A stretch of 64,000 bases of DNA, taken from an uncultured Chlamydiales bacterium. GTDB taxonomy: Bacteria; Chlamydiota; Chlamydiia; Chlamydiales; FEN-1388. Position 1 is the stretch's first letter; the number at the start of each line of letters is the position of its first letter. Position numbers and translations under genes: made by a program. The notes below the pieces were generated by a model, which did not search any database, was not told where the DNA came from, and saw nothing but the letters and a program-made list of their open reading frames with translations. The stretch is from contig CAWGYH010000005.1 of assembly GCA_963826935.1 (NCBI GenBank), positions 388,981-452,980 of the forward strand. The letters run 5' to 3'. Positions 27,836 to 63,658 of the stretch are shown here, piece by piece.

Positions 27836-27902
27836 CCTTGTTACTTCACCATTCTATGTGTCGTTATATTACTATTTATATATTTAATTAAAGCTTTTTG
27901 AA

Positions 27903-34262: not shown

Positions 34263-34267
34263 TAGGA

Positions 34268-37079: not shown

Positions 37080-37089
37080 TAACTATCAG

Positions 37090-37368: not shown

Positions 37369-37382
37369 AATGTACCTCCATT

Positions 37383-37514: not shown

Positions 37515-37557
37515 TCAAGAAAGAATTGGGGTTTGCCCGTTATCTATGTCGATCTTC

Positions 37558-37830: not shown

Positions 37831-37933
37831 TATTAAATCACTTTTTAAAATTGGGGTCAGGCATCACACTTCCAATTTGCCCAAATTGGAAGTTCTTTTG
37901 ATAAATTCATACGTGTTTCCTTTGCCTCGCTCC

Positions 37934-38206
37934 TTACTTATCGACAATCAATTCCTTAAGTGGCAACCAATAATTTTCATCAAAATTGTTATTCTGCCCA
38001 ATTTTTTCACTCAGGTCATAGGATTCTTTTGTAATTGGTGAGTCATGTTCATAGAGTTGAACACATAAAGTTTCATAGGCAACCCCCGATTCACCATATA
38101 TGATACACTCATCAATAAATTTTATATCGTCTTTAGTTAATCCTGATTTATTGGTCTCTAAAAGGAGTCTAACTTCTTTTTCAAATGAATCATCTGTAAT
38201 ATTCAT
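37934..38206 (-). CDS. MafI-like immunity protein, type A paralog
   Basis: DDSFEKEVRLLLETNKSGL...FIDECIIYGESGVAYETLCVQLYEHDSPITKESYDLSEKIG...YWLPLKELIVDK. Confidence 0.7.
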   Translation of the reverse strand: MNITDDSFEKEVRLLLETNKSGLTKDDIKFIDECIIYGESGVAYETLCVQLYEHDSPITKESYDLSEKIGQNNNFDENYWLPLKELIVDK

Positions 38207-38245
38207 AGTTAATCTCGGTAAAAAAAGTTAACAAAGTCGAGTCCA

Positions 38246-38417
38246 TTATGGAATAGGATGGGCAGTGATAATTCCTTCGCCCTCCAGGTTCAATTATAAC
38301 ACGTATGTTTATGCCATCTCTTACCCCTTCGGCAAGATATCGCATATTTGGAAATTGCGATCTACCCTTCCCTGTTTGTGTAACCACTTGATATTTGGAT
38401 CCGTTGCAATATCTGTA
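38246..38417 (-). pseudogene. EndoU toxin C-terminal remnant with a frameshift, 5'-truncated by a repeat element
   Basis: ...RYLAEGVRDGINIRVIIEPGG then +1 nt (ggagggcgaagg), after which GEGIITAHPIP* is out of frame. The upstream end abuts repeat 38418-38523. Confidence 0.7.
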
Positions 38418-38523
38418 ATTGGGGCCTGACATTCGGACATTCCAAAAGATGCTGACACTTAGCCTGCTATATGTGGCAATAACACTCAAATGTCCCAATT
38501 CCAAGCTTGACCCCGTTTTTGAC
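38418..38523. repeat. ~106-nt element, second copy of 28230-28337
   Basis: attggggcctgacattcggacattcc...ctatatgtggcaataacactcaaatgtcccaattccaagcttgaccccgttttt. Confidence 0.85.
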
Positions 38524-38544
38524 TCCGTTTTCATAGCAAACAGC

Positions 38545-40893: not shown

Positions 40894-41733
40894 CTATTTA
40901 CAAAAGAACTTCCAGAATGGCTTCTTAGGAGGGCGACTTCTTCCTAGCAGGAAGTCATTCCATTCATTGCCCGCAAATTCACAATTGCCGCTCTTGATTG
41001 TAACGTGTGAGAAACCGAAGACGATTTGAACCAACTCTTTCCAGAGTTCAGCCATTTTTTCCAGTTTCTCTTTATCTTTAATTTCTTCATCTCGTTTTTC
41101 TAATGCCAAAGACACTACACCGTTATTTATGTCAACAAACCTTATAAACAACCCCATTAGTGTTCCCTTTATTAATTCAGGGGATTGAATAAAAAATCCG
41201 TGATAATTTGGATAAGGAAGCTCTTCGGGTTTTATTTCTTCCCCGCCATAATATCGAAAAACGATATTATAGCCTTTTTCTTTGAATTTTTCTTTCCAAA
41301 AAGCAGGTGTGGGAATCGCATGCGAAGGAAAGAACGCACTAATTTCATCGGGGTTTACCCAAGGTTGAAATGTTGTTTTAATGAGTTTTTCCGTTTGAAT
41401 AGTGAAGGATTCAGCAACAATATCAAAAAATCTAGATGCAGTTATCCTGATCCCGACTCCTTTATCTGTTTCTAATGGCTCTATGGATTCAACGCAAAAA
41501 TAATTACCATCCAGCAGATCTAAAGAGCCTATTTCGAGTATTCCTGAAGGTATGATCTTAAATGGTTGAATATGATGCTCTGAATAGGCATTGTAGTTGC
41601 CTTTTGTGGTATAGCCAACAGTTAGAGACATTGGATTAGTTTCAACGTGCAAAATATGCCCATCTTCAAAGTGTCCATTATCAGAAAACCATCGATCTAT
41701 CTCTTCGTACGTACGCAAAATTGTCATGGGCAT
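40894..41733 (-). CDS. Hypothetical cytoplasmic protein (last gene of the rhs1-downstream run)
   Basis: 279-aa ORF, co-directional, 13 nt downstream of the preceding gene. Confidence 0.5.
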   Translation of the reverse strand: MPMTILRTYEEIDRWFSDNGHFEDGHILHVETNPMSLTVGYTTKGNYNAYSEHHIQPFKIIPSGILEIGSLDLLDGNYFCVESIEPLETDKGVGIRITASRFFDIVAESFTIQTEKLIKTTFQPWVNPDEISAFFPSHAIPTPAFWKEKFKEKGYNIVFRYYGGEEIKPEELPYPNYHGFFIQSPELIKGTLMGLFIRFVDINNGVVSLALEKRDEEIKDKEKLEKMAELWKELVQIVFGFSHVTIKSGNCEFAGNEWNDFLLGRSRPPKKPFWKFFCK

Positions 41734-41746
41734 CTCCTGGTTTCAT

Positions 41747-42763
41747 TTACGGCCTAGGTGCTACAGGCTTGACATCCTCATAAGCAATGTTGGAGTTAGT
41801 TTGAGGTAGCTGGAGTATTAAAGTTCCCTTAGGATGTTGATTTTGATCTAAGTCAAAAGAAAAATCGGTTACTTTCTTTGTAAGGACGGTAATAGTATTT
41901 GCGAGAACTAGGGTGCCATACTTACCCTCTTTTTGTGTCATGGAGCCTGAAATTTTTGTGCAGGGCACTTTGTGTTTCCATTCTGTGCCCATAAGATATT
42001 CCCCAACACGTTCGATTTCATAGGTGGTCTCTGGCGAAAGAGGCTCAATCTTAACGACTAAAAGGTCATCAGAAATTCTCTTTTCCGCGGTTGCTTTTAC
42101 TGAAGCTGAAGCAAGGGTATTAATAGTGTATCCCTCTTGCATGTCCATCCCTTTAGCGCGAAAGAACTCGCGTTCTTCGAGCTGTTTTGTGTTGGCAAGC
42201 AAATTTTTCCAGACAGGACAGGAGTTGTCGCCATTTTTTGGAAGACAGTGCGTCATAAACAGAGTTAACCCTTGTTCTGAATTAAGACCAACCCATGCTG
42301 CATGCATTCGTGTCCCATTAGGTCGCAAGCCCTCTATCGCAAGGACGGGATACTTGCCCCAATTTAATTTTTTCAATTTGAACTCTTTAACTTGCAATTG
42401 GGCGAAGGTTTGCTCGAGTTCGGCTTCCAATGAAAATGTATCAGGACCTGTTTGAACCATTTCATATGAATGGCTAAGTGAGATCAGCTCTGATTTAATC
42501 TGCTCTACGTCTGTTTCACAGATTGCGATATCTTCCTTTGTTCCCCAAATAGTGCGCTCTTCAACCTCAGCTAAAATATAGTTAGATGGAATTGCGGGTT
42601 CAATAGCAGGGTACTCAACCCAGTCTTCTGGAATAAGCTCTTGAATGCGTAAAGTATTTTGTGCTGCAGATAAGAATCTTATGGAAAACAGCGTCAAAGC
42701 CAATAGACAAAAATAGATGGTTGGTTTTCTCAGCATTGCATTAATCTCCTCAAATAGTTTCAT
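41747..42763 (-). CDS. Secreted hypothetical protein
   Basis: Signal peptide ...IYFCLLALTLFSIRFLSAAQ. 338 aa. Confidence 0.55.
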   Translation of the reverse strand: MKLFEEINAMLRKPTIYFCLLALTLFSIRFLSAAQNTLRIQELIPEDWVEYPAIEPAIPSNYILAEVEERTIWGTKEDIAICETDVEQIKSELISLSHSYEMVQTGPDTFSLEAELEQTFAQLQVKEFKLKKLNWGKYPVLAIEGLRPNGTRMHAAWVGLNSEQGLTLFMTHCLPKNGDNSCPVWKNLLANTKQLEEREFFRAKGMDMQEGYTINTLASASVKATAEKRISDDLLVVKIEPLSPETTYEIERVGEYLMGTEWKHKVPCTKISGSMTQKEGKYGTLVLANTITVLTKKVTDFSFDLDQNQHPKGTLILQLPQTNSNIAYEDVKPVAPRP

Positions 42764-42918: not shown

Positions 42919-43566
42919 TCAGAAAGAGACATTGGATCCCTCAACATAGCCAATTGTCAAGTCCGCTACTTGTTTCTCAATGGCTTCTGCATATGATTCT
43001 TCTAAGATTAAACGAAGAGCTTGGGTTTTTGGATCGACTTGATAATAATGGAATTTTTCATCATAGAAAGCGATTTCTGATAAATAAGGTGGCTGGGGGC
43101 GGTTAACGTTCTTATCCCAATAGACAATTTTGATTCCAAGTTGCTTAAGGTTGGGTGAGTCTAATTTCTGTCTTGGAAATTTGCGTTTTGTTTCTTCAAA
43201 GTAGGTTTGGGATAGCGGATCTTGTTGGATAGTGGCCAAAAATTTTTCTACAAGAGCTACTGCCCGGGTTCTTCCCTGTTGAAGACCCTCAGATGAATAA
43301 CATCTTAGCCATATTCCATACCTGAGATGTTTAGAAGGCTCAGTAAAATCGCCGATGTGAATCAGTTCACAGTTGTTTTTTTTACCATATTCCGTAGCGA
43401 TATCATCTAATCGTTGATATAAAGCTGATTCATATTTAGGACCCGAATATTTAGGCTCTCTGAATTTGATGAATAAAATGAACATTAGAAAGCATAGTGC
43501 TATAGCTCCAATGATTTTAAACAATGTTAAAAAGACAGCATTCAAATGACTAAAAAGATTTTTCAT
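42919..43566 (-). CDS. Membrane-anchored protein, paralog of 46892-47464 (pair member B2)
   Basis: The start is placed at ATG 43566 (RBS agga). Shares LQQGR..A....F....Q.DP...Y, I.I.(F/Y)WD..VNRP.PPYL..I.FY...FHY...DP.TQ.LRL and E.YA.A with 46892-47464. Confidence 0.65.
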   Translation of the reverse strand: MKNLFSHLNAVFLTLFKIIGAIALCFLMFILFIKFREPKYSGPKYESALYQRLDDIATEYGKKNNCELIHIGDFTEPSKHLRYGIWLRCYSSEGLQQGRTRAVALVEKFLATIQQDPLSQTYFEETKRKFPRQKLDSPNLKQLGIKIVYWDKNVNRPQPPYLSEIAFYDEKFHYYQVDPKTQALRLILEESYAEAIEKQVADLTIGYVEGSNVSF

Positions 43567-44089
43567 TTTCAACAATCCTTTTTGCTTCTTCAAGTGTTTC
43601 AGAGTGCATTAAAATCTTTTTATCGTCTCTTTCATATGCTGTTCTTTTTTTAAGCATTGTATATTCGATCATATTTTGATAAAGTTCAAATGAATATAAA
43701 ACGTTAGGGGTTTTTATTGGGTGAAATAATTCATCACGTATCCAGAAAGAAATGGAAACTCTTGAAGGTGGAAAAGGGTACTCAGCTAAAAATGGTCTGA
43801 GGGCAGTGTTAGAATTGATGTTATTTAATAAAAGCTGAGTGCTGTTCACAATAATTTGTCTCGCTTCCTTCAGAGAAAGCGATTTTTGCAAGCAAAAATT
43901 AATGGAGACGTTCCTTACCCCATGCATTCCGCCTAAGCCTACTGCGCTAAGTTTTGCATTATAGGTCTTTTCGATTTCATCTTGCGTTTCTTGAACGATG
44001 AGATGAATATTTTCGTCTATTGGATCTCGTTTATTATTGCATGCACACAATCCAAAACAAATAAGTAGTGTGAAGATTTGAATTTTCAT
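43550..44089 (-). CDS. Probable lipoprotein, paralog of 47454-48020 (pair member A2)
   Basis: MKIQIFTLLICFGLCAC is lipobox-like. Shares ..L.(E/K)AR......S....N....RPFL..(Y/F)P with 47454-48020. Confidence 0.6.
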   Translation of the reverse strand: MKIQIFTLLICFGLCACNNKRDPIDENIHLIVQETQDEIEKTYNAKLSAVGLGGMHGVRNVSINFCLQKSLSLKEARQIIVNSTQLLLNNINSNTALRPFLAEYPFPPSRVSISFWIRDELFHPIKTPNVLYSFELYQNMIEYTMLKKRTAYERDDKKILMHSETLEEAKRIVENEKSF

Positions 44090-44195
44090 AGTTAAGGACA
44101 TGTAGCGTACATGATTCATTATTGAGCCTGACCCGCTTTTGACCTGCTTTCCTTCTAGCTTGTTTAAAATGGAAGTGTGAGGTCGATTTCTAAAT

Positions 44196-44639
44196 TCAGT
44201 CTATGCCAAAGAATTTCCTTACCAGTGGAGCGAGATAAAAGCCTTCTTTTGTTATATAATTTTTCATTTTCTCTTTGCTTTCCAATTCTTTTACCATTGG
44301 AACCAAAATTTTCGTAAATAATTGGCCTAAGATTATTTTTCTTTCATCATCACTAAGGTTGTTATCCAAATCAAATGCTTCATTATATTCTGTTGGCTGT
44401 CTTCTAAATACATTTCCAATATCTCTGAGTAATTCCTTACTTTTCGTGTAATTATTTCCTAAAATTTTGTGTATATAAAATTTTATATTCAGGTAGTAGA
44501 GATTGGAATAATTCGACCTTTGTAAGTCAAGGGTTATAATACAGACAGGTGTTTCCTTAAACCACCCTCCATGTAGATATTCAAATCCATTAATAACAGC
44601 CAAACCGCCAAACATTTTCTTAAACTCTTTATTGTCCAT
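44196..44639 (-). CDS. Putative immunity protein (DUF4304-like) for the REase-fold toxin tip
   Basis: ATG 44639 lies 2 nt after the stop of 44642-44845. The family call is from vague recollection only. Confidence 0.45.
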   Translation of the reverse strand: MDNKEFKKMFGGLAVINGFEYLHGGWFKETPVCIITLDLQRSNYSNLYYLNIKFYIHKILGNNYTKSKELLRDIGNVFRRQPTEYNEAFDLDNNLSDDERKIILGQLFTKILVPMVKELESKEKMKNYITKEGFYLAPLVRKFFGID

Positions 44640-44641
44640 AG

Positions 44642-44845
44642 CTAATATGTATCCAATTGTGTATCCCAATCGCCTCCATGTAGAGGATGATTATCCATTT
44701 CTTTTTTGTATACTTCAAGTTTTTTCTTTCCCTTCGCAATCTGTGCGGGATTATATGGTTTTAACTCATGAATAGTCTTCGTTTCAAAATTAATGTAATC
44801 TATCCTCTTTCCGGTTAGAGTGCGATATTCTTTTTGATAATTCAT
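44642..44845 (-). CDS. Orphan restriction-endonuclease-fold toxin tip (67 aa)
   Basis: GKRIDYINFETKTIHELKPYN gives a D...E.K (PD-(D/E)xK-like) motif typical of Tox-REase tips. It starts in an ATGA overlap with the end of the MafI-like gene. Confidence 0.5.
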   Translation of the reverse strand: MNYQKEYRTLTGKRIDYINFETKTIHELKPYNPAQIAKGKKKLEVYKKEMDNHPLHGGDWDTQLDTY

Positions 44846-45138
44846 GGGGTCCTTTCCTTAAGTGGCAACCAATAATTTTCATTAAAATTCTTATTCAGCC
44901 CAATTTTTTCACTCAGATCATACGATTCTTTTGTAATTGGTGAGTCATGTTCATATAGTTGAATACACAGAGTCTCATACGCAACGCCTGATTCACCATA
45001 TGCTATTAATTCTTCAATAGAATCTATATCGTCATTTGTGAATCCTGATTTGTTGGCCTCAAACAGGTATCTCACCATTTTTTCAAAAGAATCATCAGTT
45101 TCTTCTCCTAAGGGAGTGGAAATCCAGTCTGACCCCAT
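44842..45138 (-). CDS. MafI-like immunity protein, type A paralog with a replaced C-terminal end
   Basis: DDSFEKMVRYLFEANKSGF...IEELIAYGESGVAYETLCIQLYEHDSPITKESYDLSEKIG...YWLPLKE, then RTP* instead of LIVDK*. Confidence 0.65.
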   Translation of the reverse strand: MGSDWISTPLGEETDDSFEKMVRYLFEANKSGFTNDDIDSIEELIAYGESGVAYETLCIQLYEHDSPITKESYDLSEKIGLNKNFNENYWLPLKERTP

Positions 45139-45201: not shown

Positions 45202-46053
45202 TTATATATTAATTCTTTGATTGTTATCGTCCTTCTTTACATTTGTATTTTTTTTACTATGCTTTAGTGCGTCTGCTCCCCAGAAGTACCTAAGAGTTCC
45301 GATCGGTGAATCAGGTTCGCATCGCTGTATTGTTATACTTGCTTGGCCGCCTATTTCATTCATTACTGTCGCATTTATGTTAGCCACAATTGTCCCATCA
45401 GCGCTTGCCTTCATGCCTTTCGCAAGTTGCGAATCACAGCTCTCTGATTTCACGAATAATTGCTCATTGGGTTTGAATCCTTTGCCAGTTAGAATAAAAC
45501 GATTTGCATCACGGGTTTCCATTATTAAACAAACATACGCACCATCCTCCCAGCTAAATTCGATAGGATTTGGTGTAATTACCGAAGCAATGCACGAATT
45601 TTTATCTTGGGACAACATTGCATAATAGGCTGGCTCACCGTTGATGAATTCTCCGAAGGTCTGAATGTAAAATTCAACATATTTCCTATTTTTTGTGGAA
45701 TATAATGTCCCTTTATATGATACAATGAATTTATCTAAAATGCTTTTATTGCCAATAGCGTCTAGTACATAAAGGGTGTATATTTCTCCTGGTCTGAAAT
45801 TTTTGAATTCAAGTAAATATAGTGGACTATCAATTTGAATTTCTGTATCTGATTGCAATATTGATGCAAGTTCATCGGCAGAAATTTTCTTAAATTCCAG
45901 CTTTGGCCCTTCAGAATTTTCATTATACACTGCGGCAGAGATGGAAGCTCTTATTGTTTCATCTTCAGTTTTCGGTCGGATACAACCACTAACCAGTAGC
46001 ATCAAAAGTAATGATCGCACAACAAAAATGAACATATTAGAAATTCCTGTCAT
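45202..46053 (-). CDS. Lipoprotein, function unknown
   Basis: Lipobox LLMLLVSGC. 283 aa. Confidence 0.6.
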   Translation of the reverse strand: MTGISNMFIFVVRSLLLMLLVSGCIRPKTEDETIRASISAAVYNENSEGPKLEFKKISADELASILQSDTEIQIDSPLYLLEFKNFRPGEIYTLYVLDAIGNKSILDKFIVSYKGTLYSTKNRKYVEFYIQTFGEFINGEPAYYAMLSQDKNSCIASVITPNPIEFSWEDGAYVCLIMETRDANRFILTGKGFKPNEQLFVKSESCDSQLAKGMKASADGTIVANINATVMNEIGGQASITIQRCEPDSPIGTLRYFWGADALKHSKKNTNVKKDDNNQRINI

Positions 46054-46093
46054 ATATTAGTTTTTTTTACATTTTATCATAAAAATATCGAGT

Positions 46094-46759
46094 TTATGAT
46101 TTCATTCTTAGAAATTTATGCCTAGCTTTTATTAATTTATCAAGGATCATTTTTTGGGACTCTTCCGAACTTCCACTTCCTTTTCCATGGAATGATTCAT
46201 AGAATAGGGGTACTTGGGCACTAATTACTACGAGAGCATCATCACAAAATGACAATAAATAACCTCTTAATGAGTTACAAATTTGGCCAGTATCTGCATT
46301 GCTATAGGTCGCGCCTTCAGGAATTTCTATAAAGGCAAAATATGCATTTCCAATAGCGTCTATTGTCTCTATTTTTTCACTGATTATCGTAATGTTTGGA
46401 AAATCTTTAACGATAGGATGAAGGACCGCGTTGAAAAAAAAGGCACGATAAAATGAAACTCTGCTATGTCCAGGGACAGTTTTCCAGCGCTCTTCGAGTG
46501 GTTTATTCCATATAACGACTTCATATCTTAACAAATCACCTGAATCATTTAGAAATGAAAGAATATAAAATTCTCTTTGTGGACGCACTGCGGTAACTTC
46601 CATGTTATTTGTCATATCAGGAACAGTAACGCTAAAATCATCTGTATAATACGTCCCATCTTTTATATATCCAACCTTGGAAGTGCGGATGCAGGAAATC
46701 AAACTCAAGCAACATGCTGTAAGGAGCACAATGAATGAGATTCGTCCACTCGTATACAT
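46094..46759 (-). CDS. Lipoprotein, function unknown
   Basis: Lipobox CLSLISC. 221 aa. Confidence 0.6.
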   Translation of the reverse strand: MYTSGRISFIVLLTACCLSLISCIRTSKVGYIKDGTYYTDDFSVTVPDMTNNMEVTAVRPQREFYILSFLNDSGDLLRYEVVIWNKPLEERWKTVPGHSRVSFYRAFFFNAVLHPIVKDFPNITIISEKIETIDAIGNAYFAFIEIPEGATYSNADTGQICNSLRGYLLSFCDDALVVISAQVPLFYESFHGKGSGSSEESQKMILDKLIKARHKFLRMKS

Positions 46760-46891: not shown

Positions 46892-47464
46892 TCATAATTT
46901 GGCCACTGCATCTGCATAGGGTTCATGGTATACCAAACGAAGGCTTTGTGTTTCAGGGTCTGCCTCGAAGTAGTGAAAGACTCCATTATAAAAAAGTATT
47001 TGAGCGAGATAAGGCGGCTTTGGCCTATTCACATCGTGATCCCAAAAAGCAATTCTTACGGACATATTGTGAAGGTCTGGGGGTTCTCCAAAATGACGTT
47101 TGATTGTGCCCATTTCATAATCATAATAAGCTAGTATGGCTGGATCGTGCTGTAACATTGTTGAAAAATCACAAACTATAGGCAGAGCGATAGATCTTCC
47201 CTGTTGTAGTGAGGTGGATTTAGTACTTGTAAAAACCAAGTGATAGTCTGTAGATTTATACGGAGTTACATCGCTTATAAGGCCGCTATCGATTAGATCA
47301 GAATCAAGTATGAATTTTAAATGATATTTTCCAGCTTCAGATTGCCCGTATTTTGTTAAGGCAACATGTTTTGCATCAAAAATTCGTTGTGCTTCTGGTC
47401 TTTGGCAAGATGTCAGAAAAAAAACTAAAGACATTAATAGATGTATAATAAACCTATTTTCCAT
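46892..47464 (-). CDS. Lipoprotein, paralog of 42919-43566 (pair member B1)
   Basis: The start is placed at the internal ATG (MENRFIIHLLMSLVFFLTSC, lipobox FLTSC). The longer track ORF would overlap the upstream gene by 122 nt. Confidence 0.65.
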   Translation of the reverse strand: MENRFIIHLLMSLVFFLTSCQRPEAQRIFDAKHVALTKYGQSEAGKYHLKFILDSDLIDSGLISDVTPYKSTDYHLVFTSTKSTSLQQGRSIALPIVCDFSTMLQHDPAILAYYDYEMGTIKRHFGEPPDLHNMSVRIAFWDHDVNRPKPPYLAQILFYNGVFHYFEADPETQSLRLVYHEPYADAVAKL

Positions 47465-48020
47465 CTGGCACATCCTTTTTACTTTTGAGGTATAGCTGAT
47501 TGCCCATAGCGAAGGGTTCTTTGTACAGTATTTTTTCTTTTCCTTCTGCACATGTTTTATATACGATATATCCATTGCAATTTTCTACGGTGCTAATATA
47601 AGGTTCCTGTAAATAGTAACCTCTGCCATCGCTAAACTCTATAGATAGGTCAAAATTCTTATCAGTAAGTGGGAAGTTGTGTAAAAAAGGGCGTATTCGT
47701 TTTTCAGTATTAAATGGAATCAGATGCATTTCGTAAATGGAAAAGAAAAGTGAGCGAGCCTTATCAATAGAAGTTAATTGAAAACTTTTTGTTACATAGG
47801 AGAAACACATCATGCGAATAGTAGGATACCATTCCCTACTTGAAGAGGAGGACATATAAAACCCTTCTTCATTTAACCTGCAATTAATGTTTTCGATAAT
47901 TTTGTCAGCAATGATAAGATCTGGCCTCTGCTCTTCCACATTTGATAAACTATCTGAAGGTCTTGAGCTACACGAGGAAGTCGCGATCAACAAAATGAAT
48001 AAATATAATTTTTTCATCAA
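47454..48020 (-). CDS. Probable lipoprotein immediately downstream of rhs1 (candidate immunity; pair member A1)
   Basis: MMKKLYLFILLIATSSC. It starts 10 nt after the rhs1 stop. Confidence 0.6.
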   Translation of the reverse strand: MMKKLYLFILLIATSSCSSRPSDSLSNVEEQRPDLIIADKIIENINCRLNEEGFYMSSSSSREWYPTIRMMCFSYVTKSFQLTSIDKARSLFFSIYEMHLIPFNTEKRIRPFLHNFPLTDKNFDLSIEFSDGRGYYLQEPYISTVENCNGYIVYKTCAEGKEKILYKEPFAMGNQLYLKSKKDVPDGK

Positions 48021-48030: not shown

Positions 48031-51000
48031 TTATTTATGGTTCAAGGCTATTTGTTCAAGTACCTTCGAATATTCATTACTTAAACATCCATGCTGAGAG
48101 CAGGGGATACGTATGGTACCTACCATCTGTAAATTCCCTTTTCCTAAAATTCCATTATACGTCATGCCCAATGGATCGGAAATAACCGATACAAAGTCTG
48201 ACCAGCCAGAATGATTGGCGGTACCATGGAAGCCATGTTTGTTATTAAATATTTTAGTAGAAGCAATGCTTTCTATGAATAAGCGTTTTCGCTGTTCAGG
48301 TTCAAGCATACGCGAAGCCAGATAAGTTGTTTGACCACCATTACTATGAGGTACAATGAGTGTATAGGCGTTTTCGCCGTGAGATTTGGCTTTGGTTGCA
48401 AGTTGCTCTAAAGCTCCAGCAACCACATTTTCATTTTCCGTTGATCCTCCTATCATGTTATAAGCAGCTTTTAGCACATCCATAAGCAAACCTCGCGTTG
48501 GTGTATATATAAGATACATGTCCGGATGGTTTCCTCCAAAGTAATCTTTAAGACCATTCGTATTTTCGACTGCTTCCTCATAATCGCAATTAAGCCCAGT
48601 TGACACAGCTGCAGCAACGCAATTTTTTGATGTTGGGTTGCCATCGGCAACTTTATAGAGTCCGGCTGGCTTACGTTTCTTTGTAGAGGCCCCCCTGGCT
48701 TTACGAAGTTTGTCTTCAACACTATCATTCCATGATCCAAAATGAAAACTATGATGTACAACTAGCTCGAAAGTTCTGCAACATACATATTTTAACCCAT
48801 CCTTCGCACTGCGTACTCCGTCTGACAACAAATCACGCAAGCGATCGGTAACATTTCGATCAGCTGTTTCATTGTCAAGAAGCCCGTAGGGATCGAAACG
48901 GGTCATGGGACTATTGAGGCAGTAAGCATAAAGGTTTGGGCCGGCTTTTAGGCCCAAGGGATCTTGGGTGAGCCATTTGCCAAGGCTGGGGTCGTAGTAG
49001 CGGCGGCCAAAGTAGACTAGGCCCGTTTCGGGATCTACTCGTTTGCTCGAGAAGCGCCAAGGGCTTAGAGGATTTTCTGGGGTCGTTTCTTGGCCGAAGG
49101 CGTCGTAGTGATAAGTTTCTACGGGGGTGCCGTTGGTGTTTAGGAGAAGGGTTATGTTGCCTTGGCGGTCGTGTAGGGGAATATAGGTGGTGCCATTTAA
49201 CTCTAGGGCTACGCTTGCGCTGATTTCGGCGCCGAGGCCTTCGCCTAGGGCGCGAAGTTCGGTGATACTGTTGGCACTATCTAGCGTGCCGATTTCGTTG
49301 TCTTGGGCGTAGAGGTAGCGTTCGGTACTGTTTTCTTGAGGGCAATGCTTTGTTAGGCGGCGGTTAAAGGCGTCGTAGCTGTAAGTATAACGCTTATCTC
49401 CCGCTCTTACTTCTATGAGGCGATCGAGGGCGTCGTACTTGTAGGTGGTGCTGTCTTGGCTTAGGCGGTTGCCTCTTTTGTCGTAGCTATAGGCGTGCTT
49501 GCTGTCTGATAGAACGGAGTGGAGGCTGTTGACGTTGTATGTCGCATCATCCTTTTGGAGGCGATTGAAGAGAGAGTCGTAGTTGTAGGTATGGCGTACC
49601 GGGCCTGTTTCTGAGGTAAGCTGCGATAGGAAGTCGTAGCTGAAGGTGCGGTTTGAGGAGCTGCCCAGGGCTTTTGTGTCTAGGGTGAGGAGGTTGCCTA
49701 CAGCATCAAAGCTGCTTTTTTGCTCAAATTGGGCATGGAAGATGTTGGTATTGCGGCCCAGTTTATCGTGGTTGAAGGTGAGGGTGCCGGCTGATTCCGG
49801 AAGGGCTGTTTTTTTGGCAAAGCCTGAAAGGTCACGCTCAAGGGTTTGATGTTTGTAAAGTTCTTTGCCGCTAGCATCCAGTCGTTGGATAGAGTCGAGG
49901 AAGGCAGAGTGGCTGTAGGCTACTTTTGAGCTGTCCGGGAGGGTAAGCTCTTTTACTCTTCCAGCTTTGTCGTAGGTATAAGTAACCGTGAGGCCGGTTT
50001 CTAGGGTTTCTGAGGTAAGCTCGCCAAAGCTGTTGTAGCTGCGGGTGGTTTTTTTACCTGTAGAGTTGTTTGTGACTTCTAGGATTCTGTCGGAGGCGTC
50101 GTAGCTATAGCTATAGTCTATGCTGTGGTCATCTGAGTAAAAGTGCTGAAGCCTGCCCTTTTTGTCGTAGGTGTGGCTGAGGATGGTGCCGTCGGCATGG
50201 GTGATGGTTTCCAGCTCGCCCTGGCGGTTGTAGACATAGCTCGTAGTTTTTTCTTCCGGGGTATTTGCGGCCTCTTTAATGGATGTGAGGTGGTTGTTGC
50301 TGTAGTAAAATAGAGTAACTATATTTTTAACACTATTCTCTGAGATGGCGTTTTCATCTATTCTTACGCAGTTATTGGCCTCGTCGTAAAAAAGCTCCTT
50401 TTTGGCAATAAGTTGATGCATAGGATCGTAGCGGTGCACTTCGGAAAGGTTGGCGCGGGCATCATATATCTCTTCTAGAGTACAGCCTCGGGCATCAATA
50501 GTTTCTTTGCGAAGGACCGTTTGGCCATGTTTATTTATATGATCGTGATAATATCGAAAGAAGGTTTTATTGCCTTCTGCATCGGTGTGTTCTTCCACAA
50601 GGCCGTGAGCGTTGTAGCGTGCCTCTGACCTTGCCTCTTGGCCGTCGATGCTCGAGATGCTGCTGGTTTGATTGTCGGCAACATCATAGCCATAGAGTTT
50701 GAAGGAGCGAAGCTCAGATGTATGGTCAAAGAGTTTTTCTTGCACAAGGCGATGGTGGGGGTCATATTCGTAACTTTTTGCTATATAGCCTTCAGCATCA
50801 AGGTGGGTGCGCGCTTCACGCATGCGTCCGTGGGAGTCGTAGGTGAAGGTTGTTTTTCTCTCTTCTTGTTCTTTGGATATTTGCCTTCCTGCTTCATCGT
50901 AGCGAAAGGTTACCTTTTCTCCCGTTGGCCCTATTGTCATCACTGGGTGGAAGCTGTTGTAAGCTAGTTCTTGTCGGGCTAAAAGCTCTCTATCCATAAA

Positions 51001-53757
51001 TAGGTGGGATGTCAGTTGCCGATCACACCAGTCGTAGGAGATGCAAGTATCAGCGCCATTTGGGGCTATCTCTTTGATGAGGTTGCCCTTTATATCGTAA
51101 AAATAGTGCTTTGATGAGCCATCGGCAAACTCTTGGTCTGTGATTTTGCCAATAGCGTTGTAGGTGGTTTTTGACACTTCTCCAACTTCGTTCCTTTCAG
51201 TTACTTTGGAGCTTAGGTTTTGATAGGAGTAAGTTTTTGAAGGGGTCTGTTTATTTCCAAGATGGTCGTAGATATCGGGATAGGTAATTTTTGTGATGCG
51301 GTTTAGGGAATCATATTCATAGCGCGTGGCGTTGCCTTGGGCATCTTTTTCACAAATTTTACGATGCAGGGCATCATATTCATATTCGCGAGTAAGTACA
51401 AGCCCATTTGTGTGAGTTTCTCTCTCTTTTACGAGGCGGCCTATTTTATCGTAGTCATAACTTACGCTTACATCATCTCGCGGGCCAGTTTTTTTCTTAA
51501 TGCGGCCTGCTATGTCATACTCAATAAAGACTTCTCGTCCGGTATGGTCCTTGGTATAGAGTATGCGGCCAATGTCGTCGTAGCGATAAGAGGAGCATGT
51601 GGAGTTTTTTTCGCGATCCTTCACCTCTTGTCGCTCTACTAAGCCCTGTTTATTGTAGTAATTTATTGTAGTTCGTAGCCATTTTCTCTTTTTAGTTTTG
51701 ATGTCAAAGTAAAACTCTAGGATCTCTTTCGGCTCGCCAAAGTTGGGACTTTCTTGCCTTGGGGTAATCCACGTCATATGGCGCTCTGTAACCTTATCCC
51801 AGTTCTCTTTTTGTTTTGAGCTGCCATCATCGACAATACTTTCAATAAGCAGCCCGCTTTCATCATACGTAAAAAACTCACGCTTTCGCACATCATAACC
51901 ATCGCAGGTAAACTTGGCTTTGAGTAGGTTGCTGCCTTTATAGTACTCGTAGTAGGTGTAGTTGCCCTTGGGGTCGCATTCGCTAAGTTTTAGGTTAAAG
52001 CCGTCGTCTGAGTAGGTATAGCGCGTCACCTGCTTGTCGCAGGTTTTACTTTTAGGGTGGACGTCGCCTGAATTTTTTGTGATGCGGGCAAGCAAGATAT
52101 CTTGCAAGACATTGCCTCGGCCATCATATTTGTACTTACGTACAAGACGTGTTTTGCCATGCTCGTCTTTGACGATATGGGCGCGAAGGTGGCCTTCGGT
52201 GTATGAGCCATTATCGCCCCAGATAAACTCCTCTTCCATAAGAAGCTTGTTATGGCTGTCAGATTTTTTTATGCGGATAAGGCGTTTGTCTTTATTCCAG
52301 TAGTAGCGGGTGATGTTTTTGTAGGCGTCGTAGACCTTGGCGTGGCCTGCCCCATGATCGCCTTTATAGTAGTGATACTCATGGGTGATTATATCTTCGT
52401 TATTGGGGCCAACGGGGGCGTGTTGGGTGCGTACGCGGTTTTGTAGAAACTTGTTGGATTTTCCGTAGTATTTGGTGAGGATATAGGAACCATCGTCACT
52501 ATATTTTTTCTTTACACGCCTTTTGTGATGGGCATCTTCTTTGCAGTAGGTAAAGTGGGTGTTGGGATGTCCCTGCCGGGCGATTTTTGATACGCTGTAG
52601 GTGCCATGCAGATGGCTGCCTTTTAGCTTTTCAAATGAGTATATATGCTCGCGCTCATCTGATGTTGTGACGTGAAGCGATGGGTTTTTTGCAAACTGCT
52701 CATCGGACTTTTGTTCAAATTTTATTTCGTTAAGTTTGCGGGAGAACTTTTTATTGTGAGTGGTTATTTCAATGATTTCGTGCTTATCGTTATAGCGGTA
52801 GAGGCGAACGTTGCCGCTTGGCAGCAGTTCTTTATGGAGCTGGTAGTCGCGGTAGTATTCGGCATGCTGTTTATTCTCATGCCTCATCTCTTTTGCCTTC
52901 CACTGGCGCTCGTAGACGCGCTTGGTGCCATCACCGAGCGTTACGTAAAAGCGATCTTCCTTTTTGCTCCAGGCAAGTTTTATGTTTTTGACGTTAGTTT
53001 GGCCGGATAACTGACCGTGGGTGATGTTTGTGACACCGGAGTTTTTGGTGACAAGCTTAAAGTGGCGAGAAAATTGGTTTTTATGGTTTTCGTCATACTC
53101 GCTTTTAAAGAGCAGCCTGCCGCCTGAGGGGTCATAAAGGGAGAGGAAGATGGGATCAGCTCCAGAGATGCCGCCGCGCTCGCGGTCGTTTCTGCGGTTT
53201 TTTGCATCTCGACGATCGTCCATACCTTTTTCTACAACATCGTGCTTGAGGCCGCCGTGTAGATATTCAAGAGGGTGATCTGAGTTATCGCTGCTTGCCT
53301 GAAAGTCGTTATCGAAAGCAAGGGCCGCAAGGGAGTCCGGGCAAAACATAGCCTGGTAGGCGTAAGTTACCTCGAAGGGACATAAATATGGCACTTCATT
53401 TGTCGCAAGATCCTTCTTTACATACTTGATGCGAGCAGGCTCAAATACTTCTAAGAAATGATGGTGCAAAAAGTTCCAGCCGTCGCCTAAGTTGCCCTCT
53501 TCAAGGCTTGAGCTTGCGTAGCTATGGCCAAGGACATATGGGTCTGGACCGCCTGAGACAATGTCGTCAGAGTTATATTCGCAAAAATCCCCTGTAATTA
53601 CGTTTACGCAGCCATTTACGACGGCTGATGGAAGGGATGTAAGGTTGACAAGTGAGGGGACGGCGTTGTCATCTACTTCTGAGGGTATTTCATGACGTTC
53701 GGCTGCAAGGGGTTGCAGTAGATAAATCGAGAGTAAAAATATGACGACTCTATACAT
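48031..53757 (-). CDS. Rhs/YD-repeat polymorphic toxin with Sec signal peptide and an alpha/beta-hydrolase-like C-terminal domain (rhs1)
   Basis: 1908 aa. Signal peptide MYRVVIFLLSIYLLQPLAA. There are dozens of YD repeats (Y.YD..G.l). The core end is GRRYYDPSLGKWLTQDPLGLKAGPNLYAYCLNSPMTRFDPYGL. The ~282-aa tip (48031-48879) contains TLIVPHSNGG, DPLG and SQHG. Confidence 0.9.
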   Translation of the reverse strand: MYRVVIFLLSIYLLQPLAAERHEIPSEVDDNAVPSLVNLTSLPSAVVNGCVNVITGDFCEYNSDDIVSGGPDPYVLGHSYASSSLEEGNLGDGWNFLHHHFLEVFEPARIKYVKKDLATNEVPYLCPFEVTYAYQAMFCPDSLAALAFDNDFQASSDNSDHPLEYLHGGLKHDVVEKGMDDRRDAKNRRNDRERGGISGADPIFLSLYDPSGGRLLFKSEYDENHKNQFSRHFKLVTKNSGVTNITHGQLSGQTNVKNIKLAWSKKEDRFYVTLGDGTKRVYERQWKAKEMRHENKQHAEYYRDYQLHKELLPSGNVRLYRYNDKHEIIEITTHNKKFSRKLNEIKFEQKSDEQFAKNPSLHVTTSDEREHIYSFEKLKGSHLHGTYSVSKIARQGHPNTHFTYCKEDAHHKRRVKKKYSDDGSYILTKYYGKSNKFLQNRVRTQHAPVGPNNEDIITHEYHYYKGDHGAGHAKVYDAYKNITRYYWNKDKRLIRIKKSDSHNKLLMEEEFIWGDNGSYTEGHLRAHIVKDEHGKTRLVRKYKYDGRGNVLQDILLARITKNSGDVHPKSKTCDKQVTRYTYSDDGFNLKLSECDPKGNYTYYEYYKGSNLLKAKFTCDGYDVRKREFFTYDESGLLIESIVDDGSSKQKENWDKVTERHMTWITPRQESPNFGEPKEILEFYFDIKTKKRKWLRTTINYYNKQGLVERQEVKDREKNSTCSSYRYDDIGRILYTKDHTGREVFIEYDIAGRIKKKTGPRDDVSVSYDYDKIGRLVKERETHTNGLVLTREYEYDALHRKICEKDAQGNATRYEYDSLNRITKITYPDIYDHLGNKQTPSKTYSYQNLSSKVTERNEVGEVSKTTYNAIGKITDQEFADGSSKHYFYDIKGNLIKEIAPNGADTCISYDWCDRQLTSHLFMDRELLARQELAYNSFHPVMTIGPTGEKVTFRYDEAGRQISKEQEERKTTFTYDSHGRMREARTHLDAEGYIAKSYEYDPHHRLVQEKLFDHTSELRSFKLYGYDVADNQTSSISSIDGQEARSEARYNAHGLVEEHTDAEGNKTFFRYYHDHINKHGQTVLRKETIDARGCTLEEIYDARANLSEVHRYDPMHQLIAKKELFYDEANNCVRIDENAISENSVKNIVTLFYYSNNHLTSIKEAANTPEEKTTSYVYNRQGELETITHADGTILSHTYDKKGRLQHFYSDDHSIDYSYSYDASDRILEVTNNSTGKKTTRSYNSFGELTSETLETGLTVTYTYDKAGRVKELTLPDSSKVAYSHSAFLDSIQRLDASGKELYKHQTLERDLSGFAKKTALPESAGTLTFNHDKLGRNTNIFHAQFEQKSSFDAVGNLLTLDTKALGSSSNRTFSYDFLSQLTSETGPVRHTYNYDSLFNRLQKDDATYNVNSLHSVLSDSKHAYSYDKRGNRLSQDSTTYKYDALDRLIEVRAGDKRYTYSYDAFNRRLTKHCPQENSTERYLYAQDNEIGTLDSANSITELRALGEGLGAEISASVALELNGTTYIPLHDRQGNITLLLNTNGTPVETYHYDAFGQETTPENPLSPWRFSSKRVDPETGLVYFGRRYYDPSLGKWLTQDPLGLKAGPNLYAYCLNSPMTRFDPYGLLDNETADRNVTDRLRDLLSDGVRSAKDGLKYVCCRTFELVVHHSFHFGSWNDSVEDKLRKARGASTKKRKPAGLYKVADGNPTSKNCVAAAVSTGLNCDYEEAVENTNGLKDYFGGNHPDMYLIYTPTRGLLMDVLKAAYNMIGGSTENENVVAGALEQLATKAKSHGENAYTLIVPHSNGGQTTYLASRMLEPEQRKRLFIESIASTKIFNNKHGFHGTANHSGWSDFVSVISDPLGMTYNGILGKGNLQMVGTIRIPCSQHGCLSNEYSKVLEQIALNHK

Positions 53758-54076
53758 GGTGTCACCTAATATCGTTATTACTTAAGTATTAAGCAAGGAT
53801 CAGATGCGATAAGGACTGCGGTGTCGAAGTAAGAGAGTTAATTCATATAAGAGAGAGGCAATATTTGCAAACAAAAAGCAGTGTTCAAAATGCAGGAAAT
53901 TCATTGCACTTTCGATAAAAAAACAAGGAAGGCGTCACCGGTTGGGCAGAGGTATGGCGAAGCAGGCTACGAGTCATCTCGCACTATGCTTCCTTAAAGA
54001 GGTGCACATGAAATTGTCGACTCCACCGAATTCTGAGCCTAGCCCGACTCGGTTGGATTTCGTCTTCTGTATAGAG

Positions 54077-54325
54077 GATGTGAAAAAATGCGTTTTTTTC
54101 GACCGCAGGTCTTTGGAGTGCTGCGATTGTTCGCAGCTTTAAGTTCTGCACATACCTTAATTGCGAGATCGATCAAGCTCACAAAACACCTCTACCGATT
54201 TATGTAGATCTGTTTTGTAAGCTTGGGCGGTAAGGCAGTAAAGGTGTGTGGTCGGAGTAAAAGCTGCGAAGCATCGCAGCACTCCAAAGACCTGCGGTCG
54301 AAAAAAACGCATTTTTTCATCGCCT
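54077..54325. repeat. P250 long-palindrome element, copy D
   Basis: ggatgtgaaaaaatgcgtttttttcgaccgcaggtctttggagtgctgcga...tcgcagcactccaaagacctgcggtcgaaaaaaacgcattttttcatc. It is followed by a C100 family copy. Confidence 0.9.
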
Positions 54326-54513
54326 CCTATACGGAGGACGAAACGTGCAAACTCCAGGCACCTGAAGACGTGCGTTATAGTAAAGGGTAACTCCCAAGCG
54401 TTCATTTTGAATAAGTGGTCTTCTGTGACAAATTTTAGCCTTTGAGATTATTTCTTAAGAAACGTATTATCGATTGCTTATGCTATTTTTTAATTTTAAA
54501 AAAGGTGTTTTAT

Positions 54514-54966
54514 ATGAGAGGCTATAAAGAAGAATCAAATTTCATGTTGGCTGCTTTATGCGGGATTTTAACTGCCCTTGCTCTTGTAGCTATGTGGGCC
54601 TATATAACATATTTTGTCAATTTCCAAGTCGGCTGGATGGCTGTGGCAGTAGGCTATATTATCGGCTATGTCATCCGCATCATTGGTAAGGGGACTACGC
54701 TCGGTTTTGGAGTGCTTGGTGCTGCTCTATCTTTGCTTACATGCATTGCCGGCAACCTATTTTTCATCATCATATGTCTTTCCAATGATGAGCATATCCC
54801 AGTCCTGGAGGTACTGAAAACAATCGATTTTTCTAGCCTTATAAGCTTTTATGTACAAACATTCCACGCAGTTGATCTTATGTTTTATGGCATTGCTTTA
54901 TACGAAGGCTTCAAGCTAAGCATTATCCAGTTTGAGCAAGAAGATGCTGTGGGGGCAGCGGTGTAA
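54514..54966 (+). CDS. Small 4-TM membrane protein
   Basis: ATG 54514 (MRGYKEE) is preceded by aaggtg. Four hydrophobic segments are present. Confidence 0.55.
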   Translation: MRGYKEESNFMLAALCGILTALALVAMWAYITYFVNFQVGWMAVAVGYIIGYVIRIIGKGTTLGFGVLGAALSLLTCIAGNLFFIIICLSNDEHIPVLEVLKTIDFSSLISFYVQTFHAVDLMFYGIALYEGFKLSIIQFEQEDAVGAAV

Positions 54967-54967
54967 A

Positions 54968-55033
54968 GAAAACGGGTCGGGCATCACACTTCCAATTTAA
55001 GTAAATTGGAAGTGTGATGCCCGACCCGTTTTC
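54968..55033. terminator. Perfect 31-bp-stem hairpin (family H) between convergent genes
   Basis: gaaaacgggtcgggcatcacacttccaattt-aagt-aaattggaagtgtgatgcccgacccgttttc, followed by a T-rich tract. Confidence 0.6.
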
Positions 55034-55108
55034 TTTTCTGCCCCTACCCACATAATGCTCTAAAGCTAATGTGGGCAGGGTAATGTTGCTAATGCTTCTT
55101 AAAAGCTG

Positions 55109-55306
55109 TTATTTTACGACTGTCGGGGATGCATCCATACGTGCCATTAGATCATCGGATCTTTTGTCAAGTTGATTTTGTTTTTCTTTGATCCCAGATT
55201 GGGTAATGGGGCATTGCTTGACTTGTTTGTAGGCAAGAATCAACTCGTTAATCTGTTTTGTCCATGCTGGATATAGCTCTATCATAGCTGTGAGAGCATC
55301 CAGCAT
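55109..55306 (-). CDS. Coiled-coil protein fragment (probable C-terminal part of a split gene)
   Basis: Its frame is open upstream to ~55431 without a start codon (..EKRRQQDAKARIIQSQTKIDAYEVTRQEGLQEMLDAL...). Confidence 0.4.
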   Translation of the reverse strand: MLDALTAMIELYPAWTKQINELILAYKQVKQCPITQSGIKEKQNQLDKRSDDLMARMDASPTVVK

Positions 55307-55344
55307 CTCCTGAAGGCCTTCTTGGCGGGTAACCTCATATGCGT

Positions 55345-55608
55345 CTATTTTTGTTTGGGATTGGATGATCCTAGCTTTTGCATCTTGCTGTCGCCTTTTT
55401 TCTCTGCTGCAGCAACTTTTTGCTTAGCGATAGATAACTCATTAATTTTATCTTCGAGCTCTTGCTGTTCTGCAATTGTCATATGATTTGCCTGCATAGA
55501 CTGCCCTTTTGAAGGAATTTTAGCTCTGGTTACTGGTCCAGCCTGACTATTTTGGTCTTGTTTTTGGCGGGATCCAAAAAGTCCCCTTAAACCTGTTACT
55601 GCTGACAT
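55345..55608 (-). CDS. Coiled-coil protein fragment (probable N-terminal part of a split gene)
   Basis: 87 aa. One extra A in the A6 run (T6 at 55396-55401 on the + strand) would fuse it in frame to 55109-55306. Confidence 0.45.
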   Translation of the reverse strand: MSAVTGLRGLFGSRQKQDQNSQAGPVTRAKIPSKGQSMQANHMTIAEQQELEDKINELSIAKQKVAAAEKKGDSKMQKLGSSNPKQK

Positions 55609-55847
55609 AACATCCTCCTTTTGTTAGGCAATGGGGGAAAATTCACCATTGCGCCTTTATTTGTATCACAGATTGTCAAGATTATAGCAAAAAAGTCCTT
55701 TTTCGGCAAGAGATTTGAAATATTTATTTGTTTCTATGTGGAGTGTAGGTTTTAAGAGAGTAATTGTCTGATTTTGAGAGTCAAAAAACATGACACTTGA
55801 CAATGTAAATCAAATATTTTAATATAAGGATTGGGAAGGAGGGATCC

Positions 55848-63658: not shown

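Follow-up and report, generated by a model that had tools for sequence, protein, structure and literature searches.

How would a chlamydia-like bacterium deploy Rhs toxins that begin with ordinary Sec signal peptides, and against whom? The question is raised by a 64,000-nucleotide (nt) stretch from an uncultured Chlamydiales bacterium (contig CAWGYH010000005.1, positions 388,981 to 452,980; hereafter the window, numbered from its first letter), which encodes two large Rhs proteins, rhs1 (48031..53757, minus strand) and rhs2 (58345..63658, plus strand). Judged by sequence, both are Rhs polymorphic toxins, each with a predicted YD-repeat shell, the motif that ends the Rhs core, a variable C-terminal tip, and an adjacent predicted immunity gene. 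We interpret them, with moderate confidence, as two Sec-dependent Rhs toxin–immunity modules, most likely used by chlamydial strains or species against one another when they meet in one host cell. A preliminary description of the window had reported signal peptides on both Rhs genes, and these are borne out: that of rhs1 lies in frame, and that of rhs2 appears once a T8 tract is read as T7 or T10, nearly all orthologues of rhs2 having one as well.

Signal Peptide and Shell of rhs1

The gene rhs1 is an intact open reading frame (ORF) of 1908 amino acids (aa) that comprises a signal peptide, a DUF6531 plug, a YD shell, and a C-terminal toxin of the alpha/beta-hydrolase type, with Pfam matches to RHS_repeat (E value 1.7e-63) and DUF6531 and to no other family. 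The signal peptide (residues 1–19, MYRVVIFLLSIYLLQPLAA; 53701..53757, minus strand), which is followed by ERHE, contains one basic residue and a 16-residue uncharged stretch and reaches a peak 10-residue hydropathy of 2.95. Signal peptides were called here by a plain rule on hydropathy and charge, which asks for a 10-residue hydropathy maximum of 2.0 or more and 12 or more consecutive uncharged residues, together with conservation across the family. Under this rule, 42 of the 44 rhs1-family members carry a signal peptide, the other two failing solely through an internal arginine; cytoplasmic proteins of the window have hydropathy scores below 0.5. Relatives of rhs1 number 95, the closest being 42–61% identical over their full length, and a scan of species-representative genomes returned one relative, encoded in a Verrucomicrobiae metagenome-assembled genome (MAG), which is 31% identical and likewise bears a signal peptide. 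A lipoprotein reading of the Rhs signals, with processing by signal peptidase II (SPII), was ruled out: most members have no lipobox, and rhs1 reads LAA directly before the E of its mature end.

DUF6531 (residues 51–116; 53410..53607, minus strand), identified by Pfam and forming beta structure in an AlphaFold2 (AF2) model, is read as the N-terminal plug of the shell. The YD-repeat shell itself (residues ~204–1625, about 1500–1600 aa; 48883..53148, minus strand), delimited by AF2, Foldseek, and its end motif, closes with the bipartite autoprotease motif DPLGL-x18-DPYGL (residues 1599–1626; 48880–48963). Modeling of residues 20–760 from a 35-sequence alignment gave a predicted local distance difference test score (pLDDT) of 80 and a predicted TM-score (pTM) of 0.79; in the model, a small beta domain, corresponding to DUF6531, is followed by an acidic insert that is disordered (residues ~110–200) and then by unbroken beta-hairpins. 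The best Foldseek match of this region is RhsA (7q97, E value 1.5e-22) of a type VI secretion system (T6SS), followed by the teneurin-like protein (TLP) 9ifo, teneurins, and TcB/TcC. Model and structural matches together indicate that the "extra" N-terminal 600 aa are more shell rather than a PAAR, VgrG, propeller, or adhesin module.

Within the rhs family, bodies that are 42–61% identical carry differing tips, among them EndoU, barnase, Ntox50, REase-9, and several GxSxG hydrolases. Inside the window, rhs1 and rhs2 are divergently oriented paralogues. They are 32% identical over ~1430 aa, an extent that places their similarity between a point just behind DUF6531 and the end of the Rhs core, and their C-terminal regions (283 vs 246 aa) are mutually unrelated.

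The rhs1 Hydrolase and Its Candidate Immunity Pair

The C-terminal toxin of rhs1 (residues 1626–1908, 283 aa; 48034..48882, minus strand) adopts an alpha/beta-hydrolase fold in its AF2 model (pLDDT 80.8), for which Foldseek returned esterases, lipases, and cutinases with probability 1.0 and TM-scores of 0.35–0.46. Ser1805 (in HSNGG), Asp1854, and His1889 are invariant in the eight sequences aligned. The alignment was built from full-length matches; a word-index homologue search with the toxin domain alone gave no match, though full-length relatives share the domain. The tip has no meaningful Pfam match at E values up to 10, including DUF2235 and DUF3274, and fits the motif set of Tox-AB hydrolase2 (HSxG, D, H), an assignment made by motif only.

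Candidate cognate immunity gene A (47454..48020, minus strand), which encodes a lipoprotein (MMKKLYLFILLIATSSC...), begins ten bases after rhs1 and is followed by candidate gene B (46892..47473, minus strand), a second lipoprotein gene (product containing LMSLVFFLTSC; likely start at Met35 or Met38). The pair follows, in the same order, every Rhs relative with an rhs1-type toxin domain (loci L002, L003, and L084), with homologues of gene A (35–40% identical) standing directly after the Rhs gene and those of gene B (34–42% identical) directly after gene A. Location of the immunity proteins in the envelope argues that the rhs1 hydrolase acts from the periplasmic side, where it probably attacks membrane or envelope lipids.

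Toxin, Immunity Gene, and Frameshift of rhs2

The body of rhs2 is an ORF of 1741 aa (58433..63658, plus strand; 58433 is the first in-frame ATG) with Pfam matches to RHS_repeat (E value 1.6e-59) and, near its N-terminus, DUF6531, and to no other family. The core ends in DPLGF-x18-DLYGL (residues 1469–1496), and the C-terminal region comprises 246 aa (residues 1496–1741; 62918..63655, plus strand), of which the last ~134 (63254–63655) form an Ntox24-like domain. Although the tip itself gave no meaningful Pfam match at E values up to 10, a phmmer search of 1.84 billion representatives found 33 relatives of the toxin domain, and Pfam Ntox24 (PF15529) is matched by 20 of the 34 aligned tip sequences (best E value 3.4e-7), the window copy not being among them. 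Conserved histidines are present, and the toxin is probably a nuclease. An Imm53 immunity gene (PF15580, E value 6.1e-26, 90.5 bits vs a cutoff of 25) follows at 63689..64000 (plus strand), where it is cut by the window end; its product has no signal peptide.

The signal codons that start at ATG 58345 are out of frame with this body, and a reading of the T8 homopolymer at 58365–58372 (plus strand) as T7 or T10 restores the frame. Upstream of ATG 58345 stand GGAG (58331–58334) and a promoter-like site (58291–58318), and its frame stops after 42 codons; ATG 58433 has no Shine–Dalgarno sequence, and a protein started there has no signal peptide. The T7 or T10 reading yields MISNFIYFF(F)AALLVFISSLEC..., a joined-frame N-terminus also written MISNFIYFF(F)AALLVFISSLECGQPLGSQAMSVIGEVAPC..., and the joined protein aligns from residue 1–2 to residue 1 of the homologues P0025–P0027. 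A dedicated search found the orthologue clade of rhs2 to be 46–59% identical; nearly all of the 16 closest orthologues start with a signal peptide (judged by eye), after which comes LSKQPxCVIGEVAPC, the equivalent in the window being LGSQAMSVIGEVAPC. Since the motif behind the signal is shared, the stretch from the T run to ATG 58433 is coding sequence homologous to that of the orthologues, and the signal peptide of rhs2 is therefore ancestral.

The frameshift may be real, in which case rhs2 would be a recent pseudogene or a slipped-strand phase-variable gene in its OFF state, or it may be a homopolymer error of the assembly; we treat a real lesion as a serious possibility that falls somewhat short of an even chance. 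It accords with the early closure of the frame from ATG 58345 and the lack of both a Shine–Dalgarno sequence and a signal at ATG 58433, with the presence of other decayed Rhs pieces in the window, and with the observation that most other 8-mers sit in ORFs that are still open. The remaining 5.2 kb of rhs2 speak for an error instead, being unbroken with intact motifs beside an intact Imm53 gene, and so does the source, evidently a long-contig metagenome assembly (the contig of the window is at least 1.118 Mb long), alongside several related Chlamydiales MAGs whose 0.4–2.3 Mb contigs have long-read-style names. Breaks of frame also recur elsewhere: the Rhs gene of L084, a 1.25-Mb Chlamydiales contig, is split into parts of 1456 and 458 aa, its Pom gene is split too, and gyrB and the 5′ part of gyrA in the window are full of frame breaks. 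The absence of any homopolymer longer than 8 in the 64 kb may lean the same way. No public read or contig found, all being from four soil metagenomes, covers the T8 run.

Several observations concern the sequence quality of this lineage more generally. In L084, the split Rhs gene lies at 10001–15766 and the split Pom porin gene at 20789–21641 (153 + 141 aa), which suggests frameshift errors or decay in the long-read MAGs of the lineage. At 10129–13320 of the window (GC content 0.52), the frames of gyrB and of the 5′ third of gyrA are interrupted so often that about a dozen segments of 30–180 codons result, with the 3′ 1.9 kb of gyrA, tmk, and a neighboring pkn gene intact; the explanation is either a gyrase copy in decay or a long-read consensus of locally poor quality, and the finding bears on how far single frameshifts here can be trusted. 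Runs of A or T with lengths of 6, 7, and 8 occur 122, 34, and 14 times in the window, and none reaches 9. The sharp cutoff at 8 may be a signature of base calling or polishing, or may reflect selection against longer runs.

Orphan Cassettes in a Larger Toxin–Immunity Island

The two modules belong to a larger island (about 26.9–64 kb) that holds, within ~37 kb, both full-length Rhs toxins along with one truncated copy, orphan toxin tips, and ten or more immunity-type genes. Downstream of rhs1, a same-strand array (minus strand) spans 40.9–48.0 kb, and it contains orphan immunity genes that match toxins of other chlamydiae. The gene at 44842..45138 belongs to an EndoU-associated immunity family; its counterpart in L089, at 67% identity, immediately follows P0003, an Rhs with an EndoU tip. 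A DUF4304 gene (44196..44669; Pfam E value 4e-7) shares 45% identity with the gene that comes next after P0134, a Tox-REase-9-tipped Rhs in L091. A second, orphan A+B pair (42919..44119, consisting of a lipoprotein gene at 43550..44119 and a membrane-anchored one at 42919..43593) is paralogous to the genes at 47454 and 46892, and its members are 50% and 52% identical to the pair downstream of Rhs P0013 in L087, whose GxSxG toxin is a different one. The array further includes two lipoprotein ORFs with lipobox-like N-termini (46094..46759 and 45202..46053, together 45202..46759), the ORF at 45202 having weak matches within the arrays of L087 and L085, and ends with two genes to which no function was assigned (41747..42763 and 40894..41733, together 40894..42763), matched at 34% in the array downstream of the L085 Rhs and at 38% in L088.

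Further remnants lie beyond the array on the same strand. The stretch at 28864..29472, which includes a 164-aa ORF for a signal peptide and DUF6531, duplicates the 5′ end of rhs1 with 94.7% identity over 608 nt (28865–29472); it takes in 494 nt from the start of rhs1 and the 113 nt before them (53264–53870, including the promoter region). Its abrupt end, behind which stand unrelated small ORFs and orphan EndoU cassettes, marks the duplicate as the remnant of a rearranged third Rhs locus. The cassettes comprise an orphan EndoU toxin fragment (27557..27835; EndoU_bacteria PF14436, E value 1.1e-9) and small genes assigned by paralogy to the immunity family (26967..27239, 27263..27535, and 27903..28187, together 26967..28187). 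Four tandem copies of the EndoU-associated immunity family, recognized as ORFs and by tblastn to 44842, occupy 36793..38534, where tblastn to the end of P0003 also located a degenerate EndoU-like toxin fragment (38190..38534). In all, the family has seven copies in the window, each of ~90 aa and 55–82% identical to 44842..45138, and no full-length EndoU toxin is present in the window. GC content steps down from the shells (0.475/0.452) to the toxin (0.41) and on to the immunity genes (0.34–0.38). The orphan cassettes, the rhs1 5′ duplicate, and these GC steps are classic signs of Rhs cassette exchange. In L089, the array behind the EndoU-tipped Rhs holds an orphan Barstar gene (16312–16701); barnase-tipped members of the family are P0012, P0014, P0016, and P0019, so that the orphan immunity seen in the window has a parallel there.

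Delivery Heads and Partner Genes

The preliminary description had further stated that the two proteins lack PAAR or TcB-like heads and that the window contains no secretion partner genes, and both statements withstood closer inspection. Pfam detected no PAAR, VgrG, SpvB/TcdB, or NHL domain in rhs1 or rhs2, in agreement with the AF2 model of rhs1 residues 20–760. Among the ~60 window ORFs scanned, neither Pfam nor NCBIfam identified a T6SS, Tc, or two-partner gene, and likewise none of the genes called at distances up to 10 kb from nine related Rhs loci in several MAGs encodes PAAR, VgrG, TcA/TcB, TpsB, or a T6SS component. The upstream neighbors of the related Rhs genes vary from locus to locus.

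On this basis, three known classes were rejected. Against a T6SS Rhs effector stand the signal peptide, the absence of a PAAR- or VgrG-type head, and the absence of vgrG, hcp, tss, or Eag genes nearby (in the window and within 10 kb in the nine loci). Against a Tc BC component, Pfam shows no SpvB domain, the AF2 model lacks a propeller, and the window contains nothing resembling a TcA gene. A TLP would share the YD shell, but neither rhs1 and rhs2 nor the precomputed Pfam annotations of their relatives show an NHL or TEN_NHL match, and the model has no propeller.

Delivery of the two proteins might still depend on dedicated machinery whose genes lie outside the window, for instance a T6SS with a PAAR-less adaptor, a TcA-like injector, or a contractile injection system, and the N-terminus would then not be a cleaved Sec signal. 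PAAR-less T6SS Rhs proteins do exist, RhsP (8h8b) and Tse15 (8uxt) are among the structural matches, and the window covers just 64 kb of a contig that is 1.118 Mb or longer. We nonetheless consider such a route very improbable. The signal-like segment, with an acidic mature end, is kept in nearly every member although the rhs1- and rhs2-type clades are only ~30% identical, and the nine loci show no such genes within 10 kb. T6SS and Tc systems take up their cargo, which has no Sec signal, in the cytoplasm, so that a conserved cleavable signal conflicts with this mode of loading. Moreover, we know of no T6SS from Chlamydiae and found none described in the literature.

Proposed Mechanism and Target

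A working model can be assembled from these features. The precursor would pass SecYEG by means of its N-terminal signal, which is evident in the sequence, kept family-wide, and presumably cleaved. In the periplasm, the ~1600-aa YD shell would fold around the C-terminal toxin, with DUF6531 closing it as a plug, and the DPxG-x18-D(P/L)YGL aspartyl-protease motif would free the toxin inside the shell, as the motif itself and solved Rhs, Tc, and TLP structures suggest. The producer and its kin would be shielded by the envelope lipoprotein pair against the rhs1 hydrolase and by cytoplasmic Imm53 against the rhs2 toxin. The loaded shell would then be exported or displayed, with chlamydial type II secretion, vesicles, and lysis as candidate routes, and would deliver the toxin into neighboring bacteria. 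Over longer times, tips and immunity genes would be swapped as low-GC cassettes, and orphan immunity genes would build up against the toxins of other chlamydiae.

The choice of target had been left between co-resident bacteria and the eukaryotic host in the preliminary description, which did not mention the immunity genes, adjacent and orphan; these genes tilt the balance toward bacteria and away from the host. The orphans carry the most weight here, because genes matched to the Rhs toxins of other chlamydiae are hardly explicable save as non-self defense, which favors inter-chlamydial conflict over host attack. Several points weigh against this interpretation of the locus. As assembled, rhs2 is frameshifted. 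Entry of a nuclease-type toxin would require passage across two membranes of the target, and no translocation domain is visible. The Foldseek matches of the hydrolase are generic (TM-scores of 0.35–0.46). Immunity is also needed for self-protection during export, so that cognate immunity alone proves no bacterial target and the orphans are the stronger argument. Finally, an obligate intracellular life restricts meetings with competitors.

The opposing view, in which Sec export and release into the inclusion would bring a lipase and a nuclease to the host (e.g., for membrane remodeling or exit) and immunity would be solely self-protective, appears unlikely to us, though it has a basis. The organism belongs to an obligate intracellular phylum, the rhs1 toxin has an esterase/lipase fold, the YD shells of Tc toxins deliver toxins to eukaryotic cells, and genes with Fic domains, a typical effector feature, are found close to Rhs in L002 and L085 as well as at 18038..19804 of the window. 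Zhang 2012 (PMC3482391) treats host-directed toxin domains in amoeba symbionts; yet the same study takes missing immunity genes as the mark of host-directed toxins, and both toxins here have adjacent ones. Self-protection, moreover, cannot explain orphan immunity genes matched to the toxins of other chlamydiae, and the family repertoire of EndoU, barnase, REase-9, Ntox24, and Ntox50 is the classic interbacterial set.

Returning to inter-chlamydial antagonism, a bolder version would make the long-shelled (~1600 aa), adaptor-less Sec-signal Rhs of chlamydiae and the wider Planctomycetes–Verrucomicrobia–Chlamydiae (PVC) group a self-sufficient vehicle, one that, once exported by Sec and released into a shared inclusion, docks on neighboring chlamydiae and injects a lipase or nuclease with no T6SS, TcA, or CdiB-type machine. 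We rate this version as speculative and improbable. Were it true, the orphan-immunity arrays would be the record of an arms race that environmental chlamydiae fight during co-infection (superinfection exclusion), and the common Sec-only Rhs class of diderm bacteria would gain its first defined mechanism.

Comparison with Known Systems

The premise of the preliminary description, that Rhs proteins normally depend on a T6SS, Tc injectors, or Gram-positive walls, does not agree with the literature: the commonest way in which polymorphic toxins are trafficked is that of the Sec or "T2SS" class, which has a signal peptide only and counts RHS among its repeat types (Zhang 2012, PMC3482391). The architecture, both toxin–immunity types, and the chlamydial presence were in fact already catalogued in 2012 (PMC3482391). 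In that survey, chlamydiae are listed both under Ntox24/Imm53 and under Tox-AB hydrolase2, an RHS toxin with the HSxG-D-H motifs, and for endosymbionts the full toxin–immunity systems of Simkania, Odyssella, and Rickettsia bellii are called "relatively rare examples" (PMC3482391). "Rhs-like hypothetical proteins" also form a large Parachlamydiales orthogroup (Taylor-Brown 2018, PMC6171736). The window proteins share with the Sec-class RHS toxins (PMC3482391) the signal peptide, RHS repeats, variable tip, immunity gene, and orphan cassettes, and the Ntox24/Imm53, HSxG-D-H hydrolase, EndoU, barnase, and REase-9 types are all catalogued there with chlamydiae in the phyletic lists. They differ in that the window toxin domains are too divergent for the Pfam models and in the ~1600-aa shell; furthermore, Imm-SUKH is listed for Tox-AB hydrolase2 (PMC3482391), whereas the rhs1 hydrolase has the two-lipoprotein pair instead.

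The best shell matches in sequence and fold are T6SS Rhs proteins, namely, Pseudomonas protegens RhsA (7q97), Photorhabdus Tre23 (7pq5), Acinetobacter baumannii Tse15 (8uxt), and RhsP (8h8b). These have in common with the window Rhs a C-terminal aspartyl autoprotease motif, an encapsulated polymorphic toxin, and a downstream immunity gene. In contrast to them, the window Rhs have a Sec signal instead of prePAAR/PAAR, VgrG-fusion, or clade domains, a shell that is ~500 aa longer, and a neighborhood free of vgrG, hcp, tss, and chaperone genes. In size, the window shell (~1600 aa) and rhs1 toxin (283 aa) are nearer to the Tc BC cocoon (TcdB2–TccC3, 4o9x/6h6e; YenB–YenC2, 4igl), in which a large YD shell likewise encloses and autoproteolytically frees a toxin of ~30 kDa. 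The window Rhs, however, have neither an SpvB/beta-propeller gate nor a TcA gene, and Tc subunits have no signal peptides and act on eukaryotic targets.

Closer in trafficking are systems that use Sec. WapA of Bacillus subtilis is a Sec-dependent YD-repeat toxin with a nuclease-type tip and an immunity gene that mediates contact-dependent inhibition without a T6SS. The succession of signal peptide, YD repeats, C-terminal toxin, and immunity gene is the same in WapA and the window Rhs (see also PMC12704120), but WapA is held on the Gram-positive wall by wall-binding repeats, while the diderm producer considered here must get its toxins across an outer membrane. Bacterial TLPs are defined by an FN-plug, an NHL propeller, and a YD-shell, and 96% of them carry an N-terminal TIP domain (Raoelijaona 2026, PMC13018210). 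They have been reported from six phyla, Chlamydiota not among them, and are proposed to be surface-exposed and to take part in cell–cell interaction (PMC13018210). TLPs (PMC13018210; PDB 9ifo and 9pt5) resemble the window Rhs in their Sec-targeted YD shell, plug, autoproteolytic RHS motif, polymorphic tip, and immunity genes. The differences are that no NHL or adhesin domain was detected in the window Rhs and that Gram-negative TLPs are predicted SPII lipoproteins, whereas the window signals are of the signal peptidase I (SPI)-like type. By analogy, the window Rhs would work like WapA or a TLP, in a diderm producer.

For the rhs1 toxin alone, the nearest functional parallel is provided by the Tle/Tli pairs, in which lipase effectors of the T6SS are matched with periplasmic or lipoprotein immunity. 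Here, too, a Ser-Asp-His hydrolase is paired with envelope lipoprotein immunity, implying action from the periplasmic side; the rhs1 tip differs in having no Tle-family Pfam match, generic esterase matches in Foldseek, a two-gene immunity, and delivery other than by a T6SS. The locus shows a lineage of obligate intracellular life with a large arsenal under active shuffling, which implies frequent contact and conflict between chlamydial strains in shared hosts. With its uniform signal-bearing, adaptor-less proteins and matched toxin–immunity pairs, the family would make a good model for how Sec-only diderm Rhs proteins exit the producer and enter their targets.

Genome and Window Context

The chlamydia-like character of the genome, also asserted in the preliminary description, is confirmed by several lines of evidence. 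DnaA and YidC have chlamydial-type models as their best NCBIfam matches, YidC passing PRK01001 with 802 bits against a cutoff of 670. In the species-representative genome scan, the closest YidC matches (73–79% aa identity) come from several uncultured soil "Chlamydiales bacterium" MAGs, one MAG among them bearing the label Verrucomicrobia, and the YidC of a Parachlamydiales MAG is 57% identical. The loci of the Rhs relatives, in turn, hold Pom porins and a type III secretion system (T3SS) cluster of sctQ, kinase, and secretin genes. Matching public reads come from four soil metagenomes only, as sparse contigs of 151–223 nt.

Further observations concern the rest of the window. Scans of the window with Rfam at gathering thresholds and for tRNAs returned no RNA family and no tRNA. 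A pair of rsr (Ro60-like RNA-binding protein, E value 6.6e-141) and rtcB lies at 32655–35864; operons of this type are usually accompanied by Y-RNA-like genes, and no Rfam RNA family occurs in the window. At 7398–9209, in a GC-rich block, an intact ORF encodes a Ser/Thr protein kinase fused to a C-terminal region like formylglycine-generating enzyme (EgtB/GldK/PvdO-type). The Fic-domain gene of the window (18038–19804) is on the minus strand, and those of L002 (7785–9923) and L085 (7708–9054) both stand directly upstream of Rhs, so that Fic genes may mark a recurrent neighborhood of effector-type genes near Rhs. Finally, a dispersed intergenic repeat of ~250–410 bp with 72–92% identity occurs at 1117–1363, 9265–9671, 16379–16787, and 54073–54327. 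Because it matches itself in both orientations, it is palindromic or resembles a miniature inverted-repeat transposable element (MITE); two copies flank the gyrB–gyrA–tmk block, and one lies between rhs1 and rhs2.

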